Part shown: positions 66-7,820 of the stretch, in pieces
How positions within the stretch are numbered: the stretch's first letter is position 1
How the letters are laid out: every line of letters starts with the position of its first letter
Virus record (IMG/VR): IMGVR_UViG_2622736468_000006
Location: 1-8,116 of that record
Length of the DNA stretch: 8,116 nucleotides
Direction: 5' to 3' (one strand)
Source: a virus
Taxonomy: Duplodnaviria > Heunggongvirae > Uroviricota > Caudoviricetes
The notes under the pieces: model-generated
What the model saw: only the letters and a program-made list of their open reading frames with translations
Told to the model about the DNA's origin: nothing
Database searches by the model: none
Position numbers and translations under genes: made by a program

Positions 66-569
66 TTATTGATAGTGTTTTATGTTCAGATAATGCCCGA
101 TGACCTTGTCATGCAGCTCCACCGATTTTGAGAACGACAGTGACTTCCGTCCCAGCCTTGCCAGATGTTGTCTCAGATTCAGATTATGTCGCTCAATGCG
201 CTGAGTGTAACGCTTGCTGATTACGTGCAGCTTTCCCTTCAGGCGGGATTCATACAGCGGCCAGCCATCCGTCATCCATATCACCACGTCAAAGGGTGAC
301 AGCAGGCTCATAAGACACCCCAGCGTCGCCATAGTGCGTTCACCGAATACGTGCGCAACAACCGTCTTCCGGAGCCTGTCATACGCGTAAAACAGCCAGC
401 GCTGGCGCGATTTAGCCCCGACATAGCCCCACTGTTCGTCCATTTCCGCGCAGACGATGACGTCACTGCCCGGCTGTATGCGCGAGGTTACCGACTGCGG
501 CCTGAGTTTTTTAAGTGACGTAAAATCGTGTTGAGGCCAACGCCCATAATGCGGGCTGTTGCCCGGCAT
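66..569 (-). CDS. insB: IS1 InsB frame, the catalytic part of InsAB' transposase reached by a -1 frameshift from insA
   Basis: The 167-aa translation matches canonical IS1 InsB and overlaps the insA 3' end in the -1 frame. Confidence 0.95.
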
Positions 570-763
570 CCAACGCCATTCATGGCCATATCAATGATTT
601 TCTGGTGCGTACCGGGTTGAGAAGCGGTGTAAGTGAACTGCAGTTGCCATGTTTTACGGCAGTGAGAGCAGAGATAGCGCTGATGTCCGGCGGTGCTTTT
701 GCCGTTACGCACCACCCCGTCAGTAGCTGAACAGGAGGGACAGCTGATAGAAACAGAAGCCAC
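488..763 (-). CDS. insA: IS1 InsA, the transposition inhibitor / DNA-binding N-terminal part of the InsAB' transposase
   Basis: The 91-aa translation ([32 protein letters not shown]...) is the canonical InsA with its zinc-finger-like CxxC...CxxC and HTH. The start codon is GTG on the minus strand. Confidence 0.95.
506..514 (-). other. IS1 programmed -1 ribosomal frameshift motif (A6C slippery run) in the insA/insB overlap
   Basis: Plus strand reads GTTTTTTAA, i.e. TTAAAAAAC on the coding strand, inside the insA-insB overlap. This is the known IS1 frameshift site. Confidence 0.85.
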
Positions 764-1066: not shown

Positions 1067-2239
1067 TTAACTGAAAAATTTTATCGATCCAGAAACCGCA
1101 GGCGGGTGCGGTGTAGTGCCGTTTTTGTCTGCGAAAGATTTATTTTGTCTGCATGTGGCTACCTCAGAGCGTCGCTGTGAATTTGATCTTATTGCGGTGT
1201 CGCAGTGGTTATCCTGCGGCGTACATCCATCCCATTGCGATACAAAGCCACCTTTGCTGTGTACTGCGTGGAAACGTGATGGCGCAGTGATGGTGTAAAA
1301 CTCACCGGCCAGCCCTTCTTCATTGGCCATATCTTCAAACCCTCGCATTCTTACCATTAGTTCACATCGACGGATCGCCGGATTTGCAACGCTGCGGTGC
1401 ACCATGCTGTCCAGTGCAATGCGCAGCCCCTCATCATTCAGCAGTTCAAACTTTTTAAAGAACTCCAGATTCCGCTTTTTCTGGTCTATCCATTCACCCA
1501 GTGTTTTGCGGGATACATAAGCGCTGGCCGCTTTTTGTACCTGTCCCACCGCGATGGCCATATGTTCGCGCTGTGTATCACGCGCACGTTTAAGACGCAG
1601 GTACCACCATTCCGGCGCCATCATGCGCAGTATCCCTGATTCCGCCTTACGCATTTCCAGTTGGCCTTCATTTGCTTCGTGTTCAACCCAGTACGGCGGC
1701 TGGTTATTCAGCATCAGGCAACACGCACAAAGATGGCGGTATGATTCCAGGGTGCGGCGGTGCAGCTCTCTGGCGTCGTCAGTGCCGGAATCAAACTGTT
1801 CGGTGAAGTCATAAAGTGACTGGGAAATCCAGCCAGATACCTGGTCAGCCAGTTTTTTAAGATCAGGACGGTCTAGTGACAGCAAGCGTTCCAGCGACTT
1901 ACCAAAAGGAAGATCAGCAGCGTCAGCGGCCAGCGAGTAACGCGCAGCCACTTTGCGCAGACGTGGCAATACACTCCCGCCGATAGTTTGGCGCAGGAAT
2001 GTATTGGCACGGCGACGCCCGTCACGACCAGCAAACAGCTTTTCGTAACGACGGCCAAAATACCCGGCTAACCAGTCGGGTATCTCATGAAGGTACTGTG
2101 AGCGCCATTCGTAATCCTGCGGGTTAACCGACCACAGGCGGCGCTCGGTGATCGTGGCGTCTGTAGGCGTACCCGGTGCGAACGTTTCACGCCGCCAGGT
2201 ATCGACGGAGTGATGTTGGCCATTGGCTACAGGAGTCAT
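1067..2239 (-). pseudogene. gpA-like rolling-circle replication initiator (P2/186 A family), N-terminal ~390 codons only; likely truncated
   Basis: ATG at 2239-2237 overlaps the dam stop as ATGA. The translation contains FYTITAPSRFHAVH, resembling rolling-circle initiator motifs 1 and 2, but no paired-tyrosine (Y..KY) catalytic motif. It ends at 1067, about half the length of characterised P2/186 A proteins (roughly 700-760 aa), and the DNA downstream (819-1066) has stops in every frame. Confidence 0.6.
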
Positions 2240-3096
2240 GCGCAAGCCATCGCTATAGAATCAAGCGGCGACTTCAGAATTAACTCTGCGGCAACTTTCT
2301 GGCTTGCAGCTGCGGCACCAACACTACGCGGGGCATTAATGCGAACGGCTTCAAATCCGGCGTACAGGTAATGCACCATTTCCAGATCGGCATTAGAGGC
2401 CACAACCGGTACACCTTTTCTGGCCAGACGGCGCAACTTACGCGCCAGCCTCCCCTGATCCATGTGCGAAAAACCGCGCTCATGGTAAGCGGTGAAATTG
2501 TCGCTTTCAGTCAGATAAGGCGGATCACAGTAAACAACGTCATTCCCGTCCCGAACCAAATCGAGCGTTTCTGAATAGTGGGCAGTAATGAACGTTGCGC
2601 GTTTTGCTTTTTCAGCAAAGGCGCGGATTTCATCAGCGGGGAAATAAGGCTTTTTGTACTTACCGAACGGGACGTTGAACTGGCCTCGACGGTTATACCG
2701 GCACAGACCATTGAAGCAGTGCCGGTTCAGGTACAGGAAACGCGCAGCAGCTTCTACAGATTCCGAACCAAAGGATTTACCTGACTGGTTGAAAGCATCC
2801 CGCACAGCATAATAGAAAACTGCGCGGCTTTCTTCATCACCTAACGAACCGGCAGTAAACAGACTTTCCAGCTCATTGAGCAGCGCATCAGTGTGATACG
2901 CCATCGCCTTATAAAGATTAACCAGATCAGGATTCACATCTGCGATCAGATACTCGTCATAATCTGTATTCATCATGACGGCGCAGGAACCTGCGAACGG
3001 TTCAACCAAGCGTTTACCTTCTGGAAGGTGCGGACGCAGCTTAGGCATAAGGCGGGCTTTGCTACCCACCCATTTAAGCGGAGTTTTAACGGCCAT
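2236..3096 (-). CDS. dam: DNA adenine methyltransferase, Dam family (orphan N6-adenine MTase, predicted GATC specificity)
   Basis: 286 aa from ATG 3096-3094, preceded by GGAGG five nt upstream. Motifs: EPFAGSCAV (SAM-binding motif I), LYLNR...NGLCRYN...[14 protein letters not shown], and the catalytic VYCDPPY (motif IV). Collinear with E. coli Dam over its whole length. Confidence 0.9.
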
Positions 3097-4701: not shown

Positions 4702-5129
4702 CAGTGATTCCCCTGTTGCTGTAACTTCTGGACAATATGAGGTGCAATCACCATCTGCACCCCGCTGCTGCTATAAATTGGATGAACCTTCTTGATTGGG
4801 CGGTTCGCGGTACGTTTCGAAAAATCGCTGTCACGTAAACTGCCGAAACCTTCAAACGTTAACCGCGCCCGTGAAATGCCCTGGCGCAGTTGAATCATGT
4901 CCCGATAGCCCAGGCGTTCATAAAGCTCACGCCAGCAGCACTTGCTTAAATGGGCTTTAAATGCCCCGGTACCAGAAGTAACCGCAGCAGCATGAAGTAC
5001 TACGCCGCGCCACTCCGGTGTCAAGTTGTCCCACCATTCAGCGGCCTCGCTGCTTTCGCTGAAGTATTTGCGGCGGATCTGTTTTAAATGCTCCAGCCCG
5101 CGCTTTTGCTGTTCCTGGCTAATCGCCAT
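4701..5129 (-). CDS. Hypothetical phage protein, 142 aa, basic
   Basis: ATG at 5129-5127, immediately preceded on the coding strand by a G9 homopolymer. The stop overlaps the next ATG. No family recognised. Confidence 0.55.
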   Translation of the reverse strand: MAISQEQQKRGLEHLKQIRRKYFSESSEAAEWWDNLTPEWRGVVLHAAAVTSGTGAFKAHLSKCCWRELYERLGYRDMIQLRQGISRARLTFEGFGSLRDSDFSKRTANRPIKKVHPIYSSSGVQMVIAPHIVQKLQQQGNH

Positions 5130-5133
5130 AGCG

Positions 5134-5142
5134 CCCCCCCCC
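5134..5142. repeat. Homopolymeric tract, C9 on the plus strand (G9 on the coding strand)
   Basis: Nine consecutive C at 5134-5142. On the minus strand this reads TAG-GGGGGGGG-CGCT-ATG, lying between the stop of the 57-aa ORF and the start of the 142-aa ORF. Confidence 0.9.
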
Positions 5143-5315
5143 TATAGCCCCATCAGACGACGCCACCACGGGCGACGCGGCTGCTGGCCATTGAATTTGT
5201 ACATGTGGCCAGGGTTCCAGCGCTGACCGTTCGGCAGTTCAATCCAGCCCGTTGAACCACTGGGCAATTGCATGGCCGGTGATTCGTTTTTCAGGTAAGT
5301 GACAAACGCTTTCAT
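5142..5315 (-). CDS. Small hypothetical protein, 57 aa, in the position occupied by fil-like genes in 186-type phages
   Basis: Not in the supplied track. ATG at 5315-5313 with GGGAGA upstream, directly after the cII stop. Translation: MKAFVTYLKNESPAMQLPSGSTGWIELPNGQRWNPGHMYKFNGQQPRRPWWRRLMGL. Stop is TAG at 5144-5142. Confidence 0.45.
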   Translation of the reverse strand: MKAFVTYLKNESPAMQLPSGSTGWIELPNGQRWNPGHMYKFNGQQPRRPWWRRLMGL

Positions 5316-5324
5316 GGTTCTCCC

Positions 5325-5828
5325 TCACATCAGGCCGGTGGCGTTGGTTGTGACCAGATCCACCGCAGCGGCCAAAACCGGCGCAGAGTGAATACGGCTT
5401 TCAACGGTATAAGCCAGCACGGATAAGCTACGGATTGCATCTCGGGCGCGATCCAGAATTTGAGTACGGCGGGCGGCGGTCATATGGCCAGCTGATACGG
5501 CTTCCCCAGCAATCGCGCCCACACTGGCTGTGGCGCTCAGTGCACACAGTTGTATGTTGCCTTCTGTTGCATTGTTCACCGGTACGGATGGAAGGCAGTT
5601 AATCTGCCCCAGCATCCCATCCAGTAAACGCGCATCTTCGGTGTAATCCGTGATAGCCAAAAGTTCATCACAGGTCAGGCGGTGCGGTTGCGCTGGGTTC
5701 AGTTTATTACGCAGGATCTGCGGCCTCATACCAACGGCAGCGGCCACATCTTCAAGATTGTGCTCAATTGCAAATGCTCGGCAAGCCGCATCAAAGTGCG
5801 CATGTTTAGAGGTCTGGTAATCAAACAT
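5325..5828 (-). CDS. cII: Phage regulatory protein CII (186 CII / CP76 family), lysogeny-establishment activator
   Basis: 167 aa from ATG 5828-5826, with GGGAGAGG upstream. The N-terminus (MFDYQTSKHAHFDAACRAFA...ILRNKLNPAQPH) matches my recollection of the 186 CII family. It is the second gene of the lytic operon, after the cox/apl-like gene. Confidence 0.75.
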   Translation of the reverse strand: MFDYQTSKHAHFDAACRAFAIEHNLEDVAAAVGMRPQILRNKLNPAQPHRLTCDELLAITDYTEDARLLDGMLGQINCLPSVPVNNATEGNIQLCALSATASVGAIAGEAVSAGHMTAARRTQILDRARDAIRSLSVLAYTVESRIHSAPVLAAAVDLVTTNATGLM

Positions 5829-5858
5829 TGTTTGCCTCTCCCTAATCCGTAGGATGGA

Positions 5859-6080
5859 TTACGCGTTAAGCGAAATGTCACATTCGCTTAAAGCCTGAAT
5901 AGTGAGCGCGGCCATGTTGACTTCGACCAGGCCTTTCTTCTGCTTACCCTTCGGCTTAATAGGTAATTTCCCGTATTCGATCAGGTTCCTGGCGGTTTCT
6001 TTGTTGGTACCAGTACGGCGGCAATACTCGTCTAAAGGCAGGTATGGCTCTGGGATGATGATTGTAATGTTCGGACGCAT
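5859..6080 (-). CDS. Cox/Apl-type small HTH protein (excisionase and switch regulator)
   Basis: 73 aa from ATG 6080-6078, with GGAG eight nt upstream. It is the first gene of the minus-strand operon, divergent from the repressor gene. The segment IPEPYLPLDEYCRRTGTNKETARNLIEYGKLP resembles the Cox/Apl N-terminal HTH. The track's longer version starts at a GTG at 6140. Confidence 0.6.
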   Translation of the reverse strand: MRPNITIIIPEPYLPLDEYCRRTGTNKETARNLIEYGKLPIKPKGKQKKGLVEVNMAALTIQALSECDISLNA

Positions 6081-6199
6081 GAGGCAAACTCCATAAGTTA
6101 ACCTGTACGGCAATACAGGGCTGTAACTGTCAATATTCACTTAAACCTACAAAGCGGAGTTTAAACTCACTTTGCGCAAGATTTCAAGGTAAAACTTTC
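6081..6199. promoter_or_regulatory. Lysis-lysogeny switch region between the cox/apl-like and cI-like genes; expected to hold the lytic and lysogenic promoters and their operators
   Basis: 119-bp intergenic region between divergent start codons. Contains a CTGT-N8-ACAG motif, a TTGACA hexamer on the minus strand (6133-6128), a 10-bp direct repeat and a 12-bp palindrome. Exact promoter hexamers could not be assigned with confidence. Confidence 0.6.
6103..6118. promoter_or_regulatory. Candidate LexA (SOS) box, or repressor operator: CTGTACGGCAATACAG
   Basis: Fits the LexA core CTGT-N8-ACAG with dyad-symmetric CTGTA/TACAG arms; located 23 bp upstream of the cox/apl-like start. Resembles the E. 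coli sulA box (CTGTACATCCATACAG) except in the central four positions. Confidence 0.35.
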
Positions 6200-6778
6200 G
6201 TGAACCTACAAATTGAGTTTTCTCATGGCGGAGCTGAGGTACTAGATAGAGTTATCCAAGCGTATGGATTCAACACAAAACTAGCCCTAGCCGAACATCT
6301 TGATATAGCAAGCAGCAGTCTGGCTAACCGGTATAAGAGGGATTTTTTTCCAGCTGATATCGTTGTTAGATGTATGGCTGAAACAGGAGCTACTCTGGAA
6401 TGGCTTGCGACTGGACAAGGTAGAAAGTTTAACGATGACGAATTAGACATCATGAAATTGCCACGCAAGAAGATTGTGGACGGAAAACTCTATGAGTCTG
6501 GTTTCCTAATGCTCGATAAGGTTACTTTTTTACCTGGCAAACCTTTACCGCAGAATCCTATCTGTGTGATTGATAACACAATGCAATACATTGTTGATCA
6601 ACACTTTACTGAAGTTTATGACGATGTTTGGCTTGTCGAAGTTGAAGGTAAAACCAGCGTTAGAACACTAACACGCATCCCTGTGGGAAAAGTTAGAGTA
6701 AGCGGCGTAGGTATGGCTTTTGACTGCGGTATTGACGATATAAAAATCATCGGCCGCATTGTTCTGACGATTGAATGA
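6200..6778 (+). CDS. cI: Immunity repressor, 186 CI-like (N-terminal HTH, no LexA-type peptidase domain evident)
   Basis: 192 aa from GTG 6200, the only in-frame start upstream of the HTH segment KLALAEHLDIASSSLANRYKRD. Sits directly upstream of int with its stop 1 nt before the int ATG, and divergent from the lytic operon. Length and arrangement match 186 CI. Confidence 0.75.
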   Translation: MNLQIEFSHGGAEVLDRVIQAYGFNTKLALAEHLDIASSSLANRYKRDFFPADIVVRCMAETGATLEWLATGQGRKFNDDELDIMKLPRKKIVDGKLYESGFLMLDKVTFLPGKPLPQNPICVIDNTMQYIVDQHFTEVYDDVWLVEVEGKTSVRTLTRIPVGKVRVSGVGMAFDCGIDDIKIIGRIVLTIE

Positions 6779-6779
6779 A

Positions 6780-7820
6780 ATGAGTGTTCGTAAACTTCCG
6801 ACAGGCGAATGGATCGCCGACTTCTACACCGTCAACCGTAGTAATGGTAAGAACGGGAAGCGCATACGTAAAAAATTTGCCACGAAGGGGGAAGCCCTGG
6901 CATTTGAGAACCATACGCTTCAGAAAGTAGACAATGCGCCCTGGCTGGGTGAAGGGAAGGACAAACGAACTTTAATAGACCTGATCACAATGTGGTATGA
7001 ACGCCACGGAGTAGCTTTGCGCAATGGTCAAAAGCGTAAAGACGCTATGACCTGGGCGGCAGAGTGCATGGGATTCCCGCTAGCTACAGAGTTTAATGCC
7101 CAGCTGTTCACGGCCTACCGCGCAAAAAGGCTTGATGGGCATTATGCCCGCACTAGCAGAGTATCCAAGGTTTCCCCGAAAACAATGAACCTTGAACATG
7201 CTTACTTCCTGGCTATGTTCAACGAGCTGAAACGAATCGGGGAATGGTCAGCCCCCAACCCACTGGAAAACGTCAGACAGTATCGTACTGATGAAACCGA
7301 AATGGCTTTCCTCACTGCTGAAGAAATTGAGCGGCTTTTGCTGGAATGCAAACGAAGCAAAGTAAAATACTTGGAGCTAGTCGTAAAAATCTGTCTTGCG
7401 ACCGGCGCAAGATGGAATGAAGCGGCAACGCTGAAAAGCTCTCAGATCGCAGGCGATAAAGTTACGTTCGTTAAAACCAAAGGGAAGCGCAACAGAACAA
7501 TCCCCCTTGATGATGAACTTCTATCCGAATTGCCTGAAACGAAAGGCGCTCTGTTCCCCAAACCCTGCTATAACGCGTTCCGCTCTGCTTTGGAACGCGC
7601 AGGCATTGAACTCCCCTCCGGCCAGCTTACCCATGTACTGCGCCATACATTTGCCAGCCACTTTATGATGAACGGCGGGAACATTCTGGTTCTGCAAAAA
7701 ATTCTCGGCCACGCTGACATCACTATGACAATGCGTTATGCCCATTTCGCCCCAAGCCACCTTGAAGATGCCGTGCGACTTAACCCCTTAAAATGTCGCA
7801 AAAATGTCGCGATAGCTTAG
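6780..7820 (+). CDS. int: Tyrosine recombinase / integrase, P2 Int family
   Basis: 346 aa from ATG 6780 (the track begins at TTG 6771). C-terminal catalytic signature present: LATGARWNEAA, HVLRHTFASH, LQKILGH, MRYAHFAP (catalytic Tyr). The N-terminus (MSVRKLPTGEW...GKRIRKKF) is collinear with P2 Int. Confidence 0.95.
   Translation: MSVRKLPTGEWIADFYTVNRSNGKNGKRIRKKFATKGEALAFENHTLQKVDNAPWLGEGKDKRTLIDLITMWYERHGVALRNGQKRKDAMTWAAECMGFPLATEFNAQLFTAYRAKRLDGHYARTSRVSKVSPKTMNLEHAYFLAMFNELKRIGEWSAPNPLENVRQYRTDETEMAFLTAEEIERLLLECKRSKVKYLELVVKICLATGARWNEAATLKSSQIAGDKVTFVKTKGKRNRTIPLDDELLSELPETKGALFPKPCYNAFRSALERAGIELPSGQLTHVLRHTFASHFMMNGGNILVLQKILGHADITMTMRYAHFAPSHLEDAVRLNPLKCRKNVAIA

Follow-up and report, generated by a model that had tools for sequence, protein, structure and literature searches.

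The window analysed here is the whole 8,116-nt stretch introduced above; position 1 is its first letter and all coordinates refer to it. It is the early-control end of a defective P2/186-family prophage beside mntS in Escherichia coli. As read from the open reading frames and from Pfam, PHROG and RefSeq, the gene order is that of phage 186: int and cI lie on one strand and face apl, cII and fil on the other, the minus strand also carrying replication gene A and further early genes. A RefSeq relative that is 99.6% identical across the region has the same coding-sequence annotation, including cI. The subject of the analysis is the lysis-lysogeny switch between the apl-like gene and cI, and in particular a 10-bp direct repeat, AACCTACAAA, one copy of which lies between the two genes and the other inside the first codons of cI. 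The features are listed in Table 1.

Table 1. Features of the switch region and of the neighbouring prophage genes. Counts out of 43 refer to the distinct switch DNAs of the immunity group defined in the text.
Feature	Position	Strand	Remarks
Direct repeat copy 1, AACCTACAAA	6144-6153	+	Proposed CI site 1; about -2 to +8 of pR
Direct repeat copy 2, AACCTACAAA	6203-6212	+	Proposed CI site 3; starts 16 bp upstream of the pR -35
Proposed weak middle CI site 2, degenerate here as GCGCAAGA	6174-6181	+	In the pR spacer, beside the -35
pR -35, TTGAAA	6187-6182	-	TTGnnn in 43/43; ends 12 nt from the cI start
pR -10, TAAACT	6163-6158	-	18-nt spacer; inside the 12-bp palindrome
Putative pL equivalent, TTGTAA (6062-6067) -17- CAAACT (6085-6090)	6062-6090	+	apl start codon within the spacer
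12-bp perfect palindrome GAGTTTAAACTC	6157-6168		Most likely incidental; conserved core is the pR -10
TTGACA (TGTCAA on the plus strand)	6128-6133	-	Not a promoter element; overlaps a GTCAAT box of the putative Apl-box array
Stem-loop CCTGTA-CGGCAA-TACAGG	6102-6119	+	Between the predicted pL and pR start sites; would be transcribed from both promoters
Immunity cassette (operator DNA and CI N-terminal domain)	6121-6450		Left mosaic boundary 6120/6121 sharp; right limit approximate
cI	6200-6778	+	186-type immunity repressor, 192 aa, GTG start
int	6771-7820	+	Pfam Phage_integrase and Int_N
apl/cox-like gene	5859-6080	-	73 aa; first in the lytic operon; phrog_575, Cox-like excisionase and repressor, 1.5e-27
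cII	5325-5828	-	Pfam Phage_CP76; PHROG CII-like activator
fil	5142-5315	-	PHROG cell division inhibitor; RefSeq annotation of a relative
Replication gene A, cut short	1067-2245	-	392 aa; Pfam GPA match stops at profile position 216/321
IS1	66-763		Left of gene A; InsA and IS1 transposase domain

The cI product was assigned, from sequence homology, as a 186-type repressor consisting of a helix-turn-helix N-terminal domain and a 186-CI C-terminal oligomerization domain. The Pfam domains PF07022 (Phage_CI_repr, 2.5e-25) and PF16452 (Phage_CI_C, 6e-31) were matched, the protein is 41% identical to 186 CI over 178 residues and equal to it in length, and it matches the solved 186 CI structures PDB 2FJR (8.6e-36) and 2FKD (4.6e-13). 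Residues 114-188 are homologous in sequence to the 14-mer C-terminal domain structure 2FKD. The earlier description of the gene as the cI repressor gene of a P2/186-family lysis-lysogeny switch is borne out by these matches. The GTG at 6200 is the earliest possible in-frame start.

On re-reading the sequence, the coordinates given in the earlier note for the repeats, the 12-bp palindrome, the TTGACA hexamer, the GAGTTT tails and the overlap with cI all proved exact. Exactly two exact copies of AACCTACAAA are present in the whole window. GAGTTT, which had been described as following each copy, is indeed found both times, at unequal distances: 3 nt beyond copy 1 (6157-6162) and 2 nt beyond copy 2 (6215-6220). 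No listed feature is significant by chance alone within the window. With up to two mismatches, AACCTACAAA occurs seven times (6.9 expected); 10-mer direct repeats within 100 bp are found at five places (0.86 expected, with at least one in 48% of simulated windows); perfect 12-bp palindromes number four (2.3 expected) and TTGACA occurs twice (4.7 expected). Because these within-window statistics are unremarkable, the reality of the repeat was settled by comparison with relatives.

Relatives were gathered by their CI protein and not by the DNA motif, giving 135 loci (11 genome loci, 80 viral contigs and 44 metagenome contigs). Each locus was anchored on the conserved CI residues LDR, and the loci were grouped by the sequence of the helix-turn-helix recognition region. 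The immunity group of the window consists of the loci with SSSLANRYKRD(F/L)F, comprising 69 loci with 43 distinct switch DNAs; 43 is the denominator used below. The motif [AG][AG][CG]CTA[ACT][AT] was found at both window positions in 41/43, always with a spacing of 59 bp, and the exact 10-mer stands at the copy 1 position in 33/43. The consensus of the repeat is AA[C/G]CTACAAA, asymmetric and in the same orientation in both copies. Within the group the identity of CI drops to 51% and that of the DNA between the copies to 59%, and the motif is retained across the hosts Escherichia, Erwinia, Scandinavium and Pectobacterium. Conserved blocks surround copy 1 (6141-6153, TTAAACCTACAAA, with high column information) and copy 2 (6192-6213). 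In a lag analysis the best-conserved self-match was at lag 59 (9.6 of 12, against a median of 5.8), with lags 29 and 30 among the next best. The alignment of related switches suggested in the earlier note was thus carried out, and the direct repeat is both conserved and linked to the repressor. The GAGTTT tails are not conserved as a repeat element, being found after copy 1 in 18/43 and after copy 2 in 12/43.

Several lineages elaborate the repeat. Four loci (L003, L019, L020 and L132) carry three direct copies at -98, -68 and -39, that is 30 and 29 bp apart, the middle copy of the L003 type being AGCTACAA; in this L003-type lineage both of the outer copies have changed to AAGCTACA and the third has been added in phase. 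In a distant subgroup the repeat unit is extended to about 19 bp, ACTTTCGyrAACCTACAAA, and an inverted copy lies in the spacer. Strict covariation of the two copies was also considered and rejected, since in many phages one copy reads AACC while its partner reads AAGC or AGCC. The 10-mer AACCTACAAA was not found in a phage context in the literature searched, and no isolated phage in the collection searched has the immunity type of the window; Yersinia phage vB_YenM_06.16-2 represents another immunity type.

A scan of positions 5800-6400 gave one promoter-like match only, the minus-strand TTGAAA-18-TAAACT. Its -10 hexamer is TAAACT, TAATAT or TACACT in 43/43, with T1, A2 and T6 invariant (TAnAnT). 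As it is the sole promoter-like site, is conserved and is placed relative to the cI start like the annotated pR of 186, it was identified from sequence as the lytic promoter, the equivalent of 186 pR. The hexamers of the putative pL (Table 1) are weak and below the detection of the promoter scan, and their conservation is inseparable from the coding and Shine-Dalgarno constraint of apl. Transcription is predicted to start at about 6150-6152 on the minus strand from pR and at about 6097-6098 on the plus strand from pL.

The -10 hexamer lies within the 12-bp palindrome, and the real CI operator might therefore be sought in GAGTTTAAACTC, or in the longer imperfect dyad CAAAGcgGAGTTT/AAACTCaCTTTG, with the direct repeats being secondary. 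186 and the sibling immunity groups described below use inverted repeats, GAGTTTAAACTC covers the pR -10 and columns 6158-6171 are well conserved. We nevertheless regard such an operator as unlikely. The palindrome is perfect in just 9/43 of the switches that share the recognition helix, whole subgroups having GAGTTTAATATC or GATATTAATGTA instead, and the bases that are conserved are those of the -10 hexamer TAnAnT. Within the operator region the group conserves no pair of inverted repeats (the best scored 5.2 of 8), a palindrome screen likewise found none there, and the half-site centres of the 12-bp dyad are 6 bp apart, against sibling operators of 13-15 bp. The view that the region combines direct and inverted repeats was accordingly revised, the palindrome not being conserved as such. 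The TTGACA hexamer fared no better as a promoter element: it has no -10 partner, TGTCAA is present in 8/43 and the conserved -35 is the TTGAAA of pR.

Copy 2 spans codons 2-4 of cI and the first base of codon 5 (GTG AAC CTA CAA A..), and the codons beneath it are unusually constrained. Leu3 is encoded by CTA in 43/43 and Gln4 by CAA in 42/43, whereas the invariant residues Leu15, Leu30 and Leu34 each use five to six codons across the group. When 41 full-length genes were aligned by codon, synonymous entropy was zero at codon 3 and at no other of the 104 conserved cI codons (mean 0.77), and codon 4 had the next-lowest value; no other stretch of cI in this alignment showed a comparable suppression of synonymous variation. 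If CI does bind here, codons 2-4 of cI would offer an example of dual constraint, in which a protein-binding site limits the choice of synonymous codons. The Shine-Dalgarno-like CAAGG of cI (6185-6189) is kept in 43/43. At the position of copy 2 the other recognition-helix groups have no copy, a second CTACAAA inside cI being unique to the group of the window. In this group the stretch from pR to cI is also shorter than in the siblings, by about 23 bp, and for this reason the distal site falls inside the coding sequence.

The missing DNA bears on another explanation, in which the copies are not a functional pair: copy 1 would be ancestral initial transcribed or leader sequence of pR, copy 2 would serve the initiation of cI translation, and their identity would be historical, left by a duplication or deletion junction. 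Loss of the ~23 bp could have made copy 2 at such a junction, other CI types are accompanied by a sequence like copy 1 in the corresponding position and the repeat is statistically unremarkable within the window. A purely historical origin is nonetheless improbable, given that the rare leucine codon CTA is fixed in all lineages while codon 2 varies freely and that the 59-bp spacing is invariant. The concerted change of both copies and the in-phase third copy in the L003 type, the lengthening of the unit to ~19 bp in the distant subgroup and the absence of the sequence from the L139 type, which has the same Apl and the same leader up to 6120, argue in the same direction.

The position of copy 2 had also been taken to suggest translational control of cI. 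The region of copy 2 could pair within the cI mRNA, or the 5' end of the pR transcript, antisense to copy 1, could pair with copy 2 at the start codon, and either event could affect cI translation. In the window, 6163-6174 and 6209-6220 are complementary at 11 of 12 positions, and convergent promoters would be expected to yield antisense RNA over copy 1. Among the homologues this complementarity is most often 7/12 and does not exceed 8 in 36/43. No conserved structure was obtained on either strand with RNAalifold from the 43 sequences, and no Rfam match was found in 5800-6400 at E values up to 1. The copies moreover differ from one another at positions 2-3 within many phages, which an antisense interaction would tolerate less easily than would a protein site. 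Control at the RNA level is thus very unlikely, and an overlap with the start of cI does not call for it, the CI-binding region of 186 likewise abutting the cI start.

The binder of the repeat was approached through heteroimmune relatives. More than 20 E. coli genomes match 5850-6120, on the apl side, at 97-99.6% and then diverge beyond 6120, where they carry other immunity types. The most informative of these is L139, an E. coli prophage (NZ_CM132658) whose Apl is 100%, CII 99.4% and Int 97% identical to that of the window. The C-terminal part of its CI is 82% identical and the N-terminal part 66%, with a different recognition helix. L139 is without AACCTACAAA and instead has two 15-bp palindromes, TTCGCGTTTCGAGAA and TTCTCGAATCGAGA, 29 bp apart around the -35. 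A further prophage, L138, sits at the same mntS site, and sharing of the CI C-terminal part (82-86%) and of Int (97-98%) was again observed for L138 and L139. As far as the sequences tell, the N-terminal domain of CI is the sole regulator that changes along with the operator DNA.

This pattern is also what decides whether the repeats could be sites for some other protein, such as Apl/Cox (a user of direct repeats), CII, the integrase at its arm sites or a host factor such as IHF. 186 CII binds direct repeats, and copy 1 adjoins CAAT-type boxes about one helical turn apart. Direct repeats are bound by recombination directionality factors as well (PMC7498355). Since L139 keeps Apl, CII and Int in the same host species and yet lacks the motif, these proteins and a host factor are poor candidates. 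The motif is kept from Escherichia to Erwinia, Scandinavium and Pectobacterium, copy 2 occurs only with the CI N-terminal domain of this group, and the 59-bp spacing differs from the 10-11 bp of excisionase arrays. The motif is also unlike the arm consensus of 186-type integrases (PMC3448106; 186 record). A binder other than CI is accordingly the least probable of the explanations considered, and we think it highly unlikely.

The sister groups (L027/L139, L004, L068, L008, L072 and L080) have 13-15-bp palindromes of their own, with centres 28-29 bp apart around the pR -35, one in the spacer between -35 and -10 and one upstream of the -35. These palindromes consist of 6-bp arms around a 1-3-bp gap and are specific to each recognition helix; in some sister groups a third half-site lies 31 bp further downstream, giving steps of 31 and 29 bp. 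The sister types share the switch backbone and the geometry of the pR -35 and -10 with the group of the window, their Apl, CII and Int are identical or nearly so, and their sites are phased at 28-31 bp around the -35, some having CTACAAC at the position of site 1. They differ in that sites 2 and 3 are the palindromes and in that none has a second CTACAAA in cI. Their intergenic region is ~17-37 bp longer (mostly ~20-27 bp), so that their distal site lies upstream of the cI start. The phasing of about three turns in these groups contrasts with the two-turn spacing at 186 pR (PMC3675496). The statement in the earlier note that the operator logic could not be guessed from the family was a fair one: this 186-type CI appears to read same-orientation elements, and its closest heteroimmune siblings read palindromes. 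A perfect 8-bp palindrome, TTGCGCAA, was noticed at 6172-6179 in the pR spacer, where the siblings keep their main palindromic operator; it is specific to the window's nearest relatives, and the group as a whole does not conserve it.

From the comparisons taken together, we consider it probable that the two copies of AACCTACAAA are operator elements for the prophage's own 186-type CI. The data presented here support the family of the repressor, the promoter signals, the conservation of the repeat, the constraint on the codons and the inheritance of the repeat together with the N-terminal domain of CI. The locus is most likely a new immunity type of the well-known 186 switch, in which the palindrome and the TTGACA hexamer are incidental. 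As the sequences of the relatives suggest, the best reading of the 59-bp spacing is that it covers two steps of ~29.5 bp and that the site in the middle is degenerate.

We infer both the binding itself and the geometry of the oligomer, and the mechanism proposed is as follows. The helix-turn-helix domains of one CI oligomer, which, judged from its homology to 186 CI, would be a wheel built of dimers, would contact sites ~29.5 bp apart and touch the DNA in the middle weakly. With the 59 bp that carry the -35 and -10 of pR held on CI, transcription of apl, cII and the lytic genes would be turned off. Silencing of pR would relieve the convergent interference on the weak pL near the apl start, and transcription of cI and int would be maintained, according to the logic of 186. 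Copy 2 would work as DNA and not as RNA. Autoregulation of cI would be plausible only in the indirect sense known from 186.

A number of points weigh against this assignment. The attribution to CI was drawn from conservation and from co-inheritance with the CI N-terminal domain. Asymmetric sites in the same orientation are unexpected for a symmetric helix-turn-helix dimer and are unlike the sites of 186 and of the siblings, and the middle site is degenerate in the window. A distance of 59 bp corresponds to 5.6 turns of relaxed B-DNA, which would leave the copies off one face of the helix unless the DNA is wrapped or overwound. Sequences resembling copy 1 (TTAACCTACAAC or AAAAACTACAAC) are present in two other recognition-helix groups, whose remaining sites are palindromes; they stand in the homologous position just downstream of the pR -10, with the last CAATATTC box on one side and the GGAG that precedes the -10 on the other. 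Copy 1 by itself is therefore not immunity-specific on the sequences compared, and what is unique to the group of the window is the second copy; copy 1 may be an ancestral leader sequence later adopted by this CI lineage, and its conservation could be partly ancestral or could serve another function. The assignment of TTGTAA-17-CAAACT as the pL equivalent is a suggestion by positional analogy with the annotated pL of 186 only. A weight-matrix search of 43 loci, covering ~1.5 kb on each side or up to the contig end, gave no FL- or FR-like distal site at a conserved position.

A more specific proposal is that the CI oligomer reads asymmetric, same-orientation sites phased at ~29.5 bp, or three turns, and not palindromes two turns apart. 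We put this forward tentatively and consider it rather doubtful. Were it true, a dimer would touch each site through a single specific contact, or else the N-terminal domains would follow one another head to tail, and wrapping in three-turn steps would be a natural geometry for the CI wheel. It would also bear on the mismatch between the wheel model (~147 bp) and the ~180 bp of wrapped DNA discussed for 186 (PMC3675496). If binding by CI is granted, the locus would represent an uncharacterized immunity specificity of a 186 repressor, with operators that depart from the palindrome rule and a phasing of about three turns. The sibling types would form a natural comparison set for how a wheel-shaped repressor reads and wraps DNA, since they keep one backbone and exchange the CI N-terminal domain and the operators, and they would be a source of orthogonal repressor/operator pairs that are expected not to cross-react.

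In 186, the CI operators cover pR and a 14-mer wheel of seven dimers wraps the DNA (PMC3675496). The sites at 186 pR are stepped by two helical turns (PMC3675496) and those at pB, the late-activator promoter, are 32 bp apart; in the IMG/VR contigs compared here, which are integrated prophages, the late-activator gene is at the far end. The lysogenic promoter pL of 186, at the apl start, stands face to face with pR. The 186 record puts the -35 of pR at a distance of 14 nt from the cI start, and its annotated CI-binding region (23011-23067) begins at the cI start codon. The window resembles 186 in the two-domain fold family and length of CI, in gene order with an apl-type gene opposite cI, and in having pR immediately beside the cI start (12 nt here against 14 nt in 186). 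In both, the sites run from upstream of the -35 to the transcription start, and the start codon of cI has a CI site, proposed in the present case, at or over it, copy 2 starting 3 nt inside the gene. Since the pR -35 of the window ends so near the cI start (Table 1), its promoter-distal site comes to lie within the first cI codons. Peculiar to 186 are three 17-bp pR sites two turns apart (56 bp in total), the central one being a clear inverted repeat, where the window has asymmetric same-orientation elements 59 bp apart, with ~29.5 bp per step and no conserved inverted repeat. The Apl-like protein of the window has no similarity to 186 Apl that is detectable by BLASTP.

The C repressor of P2 reads directly repeated operators and not a palindrome (PMC1904268, PMC4752584). 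The present locus shares with the C systems (O1 and O2 at Pe of P2, with W-phi and P2 Hy dis as further examples) a switch of the P2 family, a layout in which the promoters would converge and, in logic only, the placing of two same-orientation copies at the early promoter, the copies here bracketing pR. C itself is an unrelated protein of 99 residues, unlike the 192-residue repressor with 186-CI domains encoded here. In P2 the repeats stand on either side of the -10 at a distance of about two helical turns, whereas here the whole promoter lies between copies spaced at 59 bp.

186 also has single CI sites, FL and FR, ~300 bp away from pR, which were not found here within the ranges scanned. A further scan of 36 loci (10 kb on the apl side and 0.9-10.6 kb past the cI start) gave no distal copy of the motif at a conserved position; FL and FR of 186 differ in sequence class from its pR sites, and the distal scan covers the motif class of the window only. 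A near-match at 4847-4856 recurs only in close relatives and lies inside an open reading frame. An inverted repeat, GCGTTAAGCGAA-N8-TTCGCTTAAAGC, was observed at 5863-5894 in the last codons of the apl-like gene, at the position of the FR operator and the pE promoter of 186. It was considered as an FR-like CI site and set aside as not immunity-specific, as it lies in DNA that is 99.6% identical to heteroimmune prophages. Directly to the left of copy 1, ATTCACTTAAA (6135-6145) matches the left half and spacer of the A-type operators of 186, the sequences compared being FL CTTCACTTAAT, FR ATTCACTTTAT and pB ATTCAC. The ATTCAC at 6135-6140 is probably not a cognate A-type half-site, since it is present only in some of the subgroups that have the same recognition helix.

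Between the two promoters lies a stem-loop that is strongly conserved in form. Across 34 distinct homologous switches, 96.1% of the cells are paired and all six pairs show compensatory double changes; the covariation score is 0.715, compared with 0.265 in shuffled alignments (0/500 reach the observed value) and at most 0.143 in slid controls. The arms vary (CCGATA/TATCGG, GGATA/TATCC, CTGACA/TGTCAG and TGAGCG/CGCTCA) and the loop, nGnCAA, is nearly constant. Because the arms differ even among switches of one CI helix group, and where the Apl helix-turn-helix is unchanged, the element is more suggestive of a structure in RNA or DNA than of a palindrome recognized by a protein. The U-G pairs seen on the plus strand are slightly in favour of the cI-sense transcript. 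No match to the stem-loop was found in Rfam.

Inspection by eye of 6097-6146, also between the two promoters, revealed a series of boxes resembling G(G/T)CAAT, GTTAAC or TTAAAC at a spacing of ~10-12 bp. The boxes are clearer in relatives, GGCAAT occurring three times at 10 bp in L042, and the TGTCAA discussed above is part of one box of the window. By analogy, its probable counterpart in 186 is the array of direct-repeat Apl/Cox boxes, which lie about one helical turn from each other between pR and pL.

The prophage was classed as defective because IS1 adjoins the truncated replication gene A. The same immunity region was examined in two E. coli carriers, and both are remnants as well. For the host genome the locus is ordinary, a regulatory remnant of a defective prophage next to mntS; in strain 573 the prophage remnant lies between mntR and mntS.

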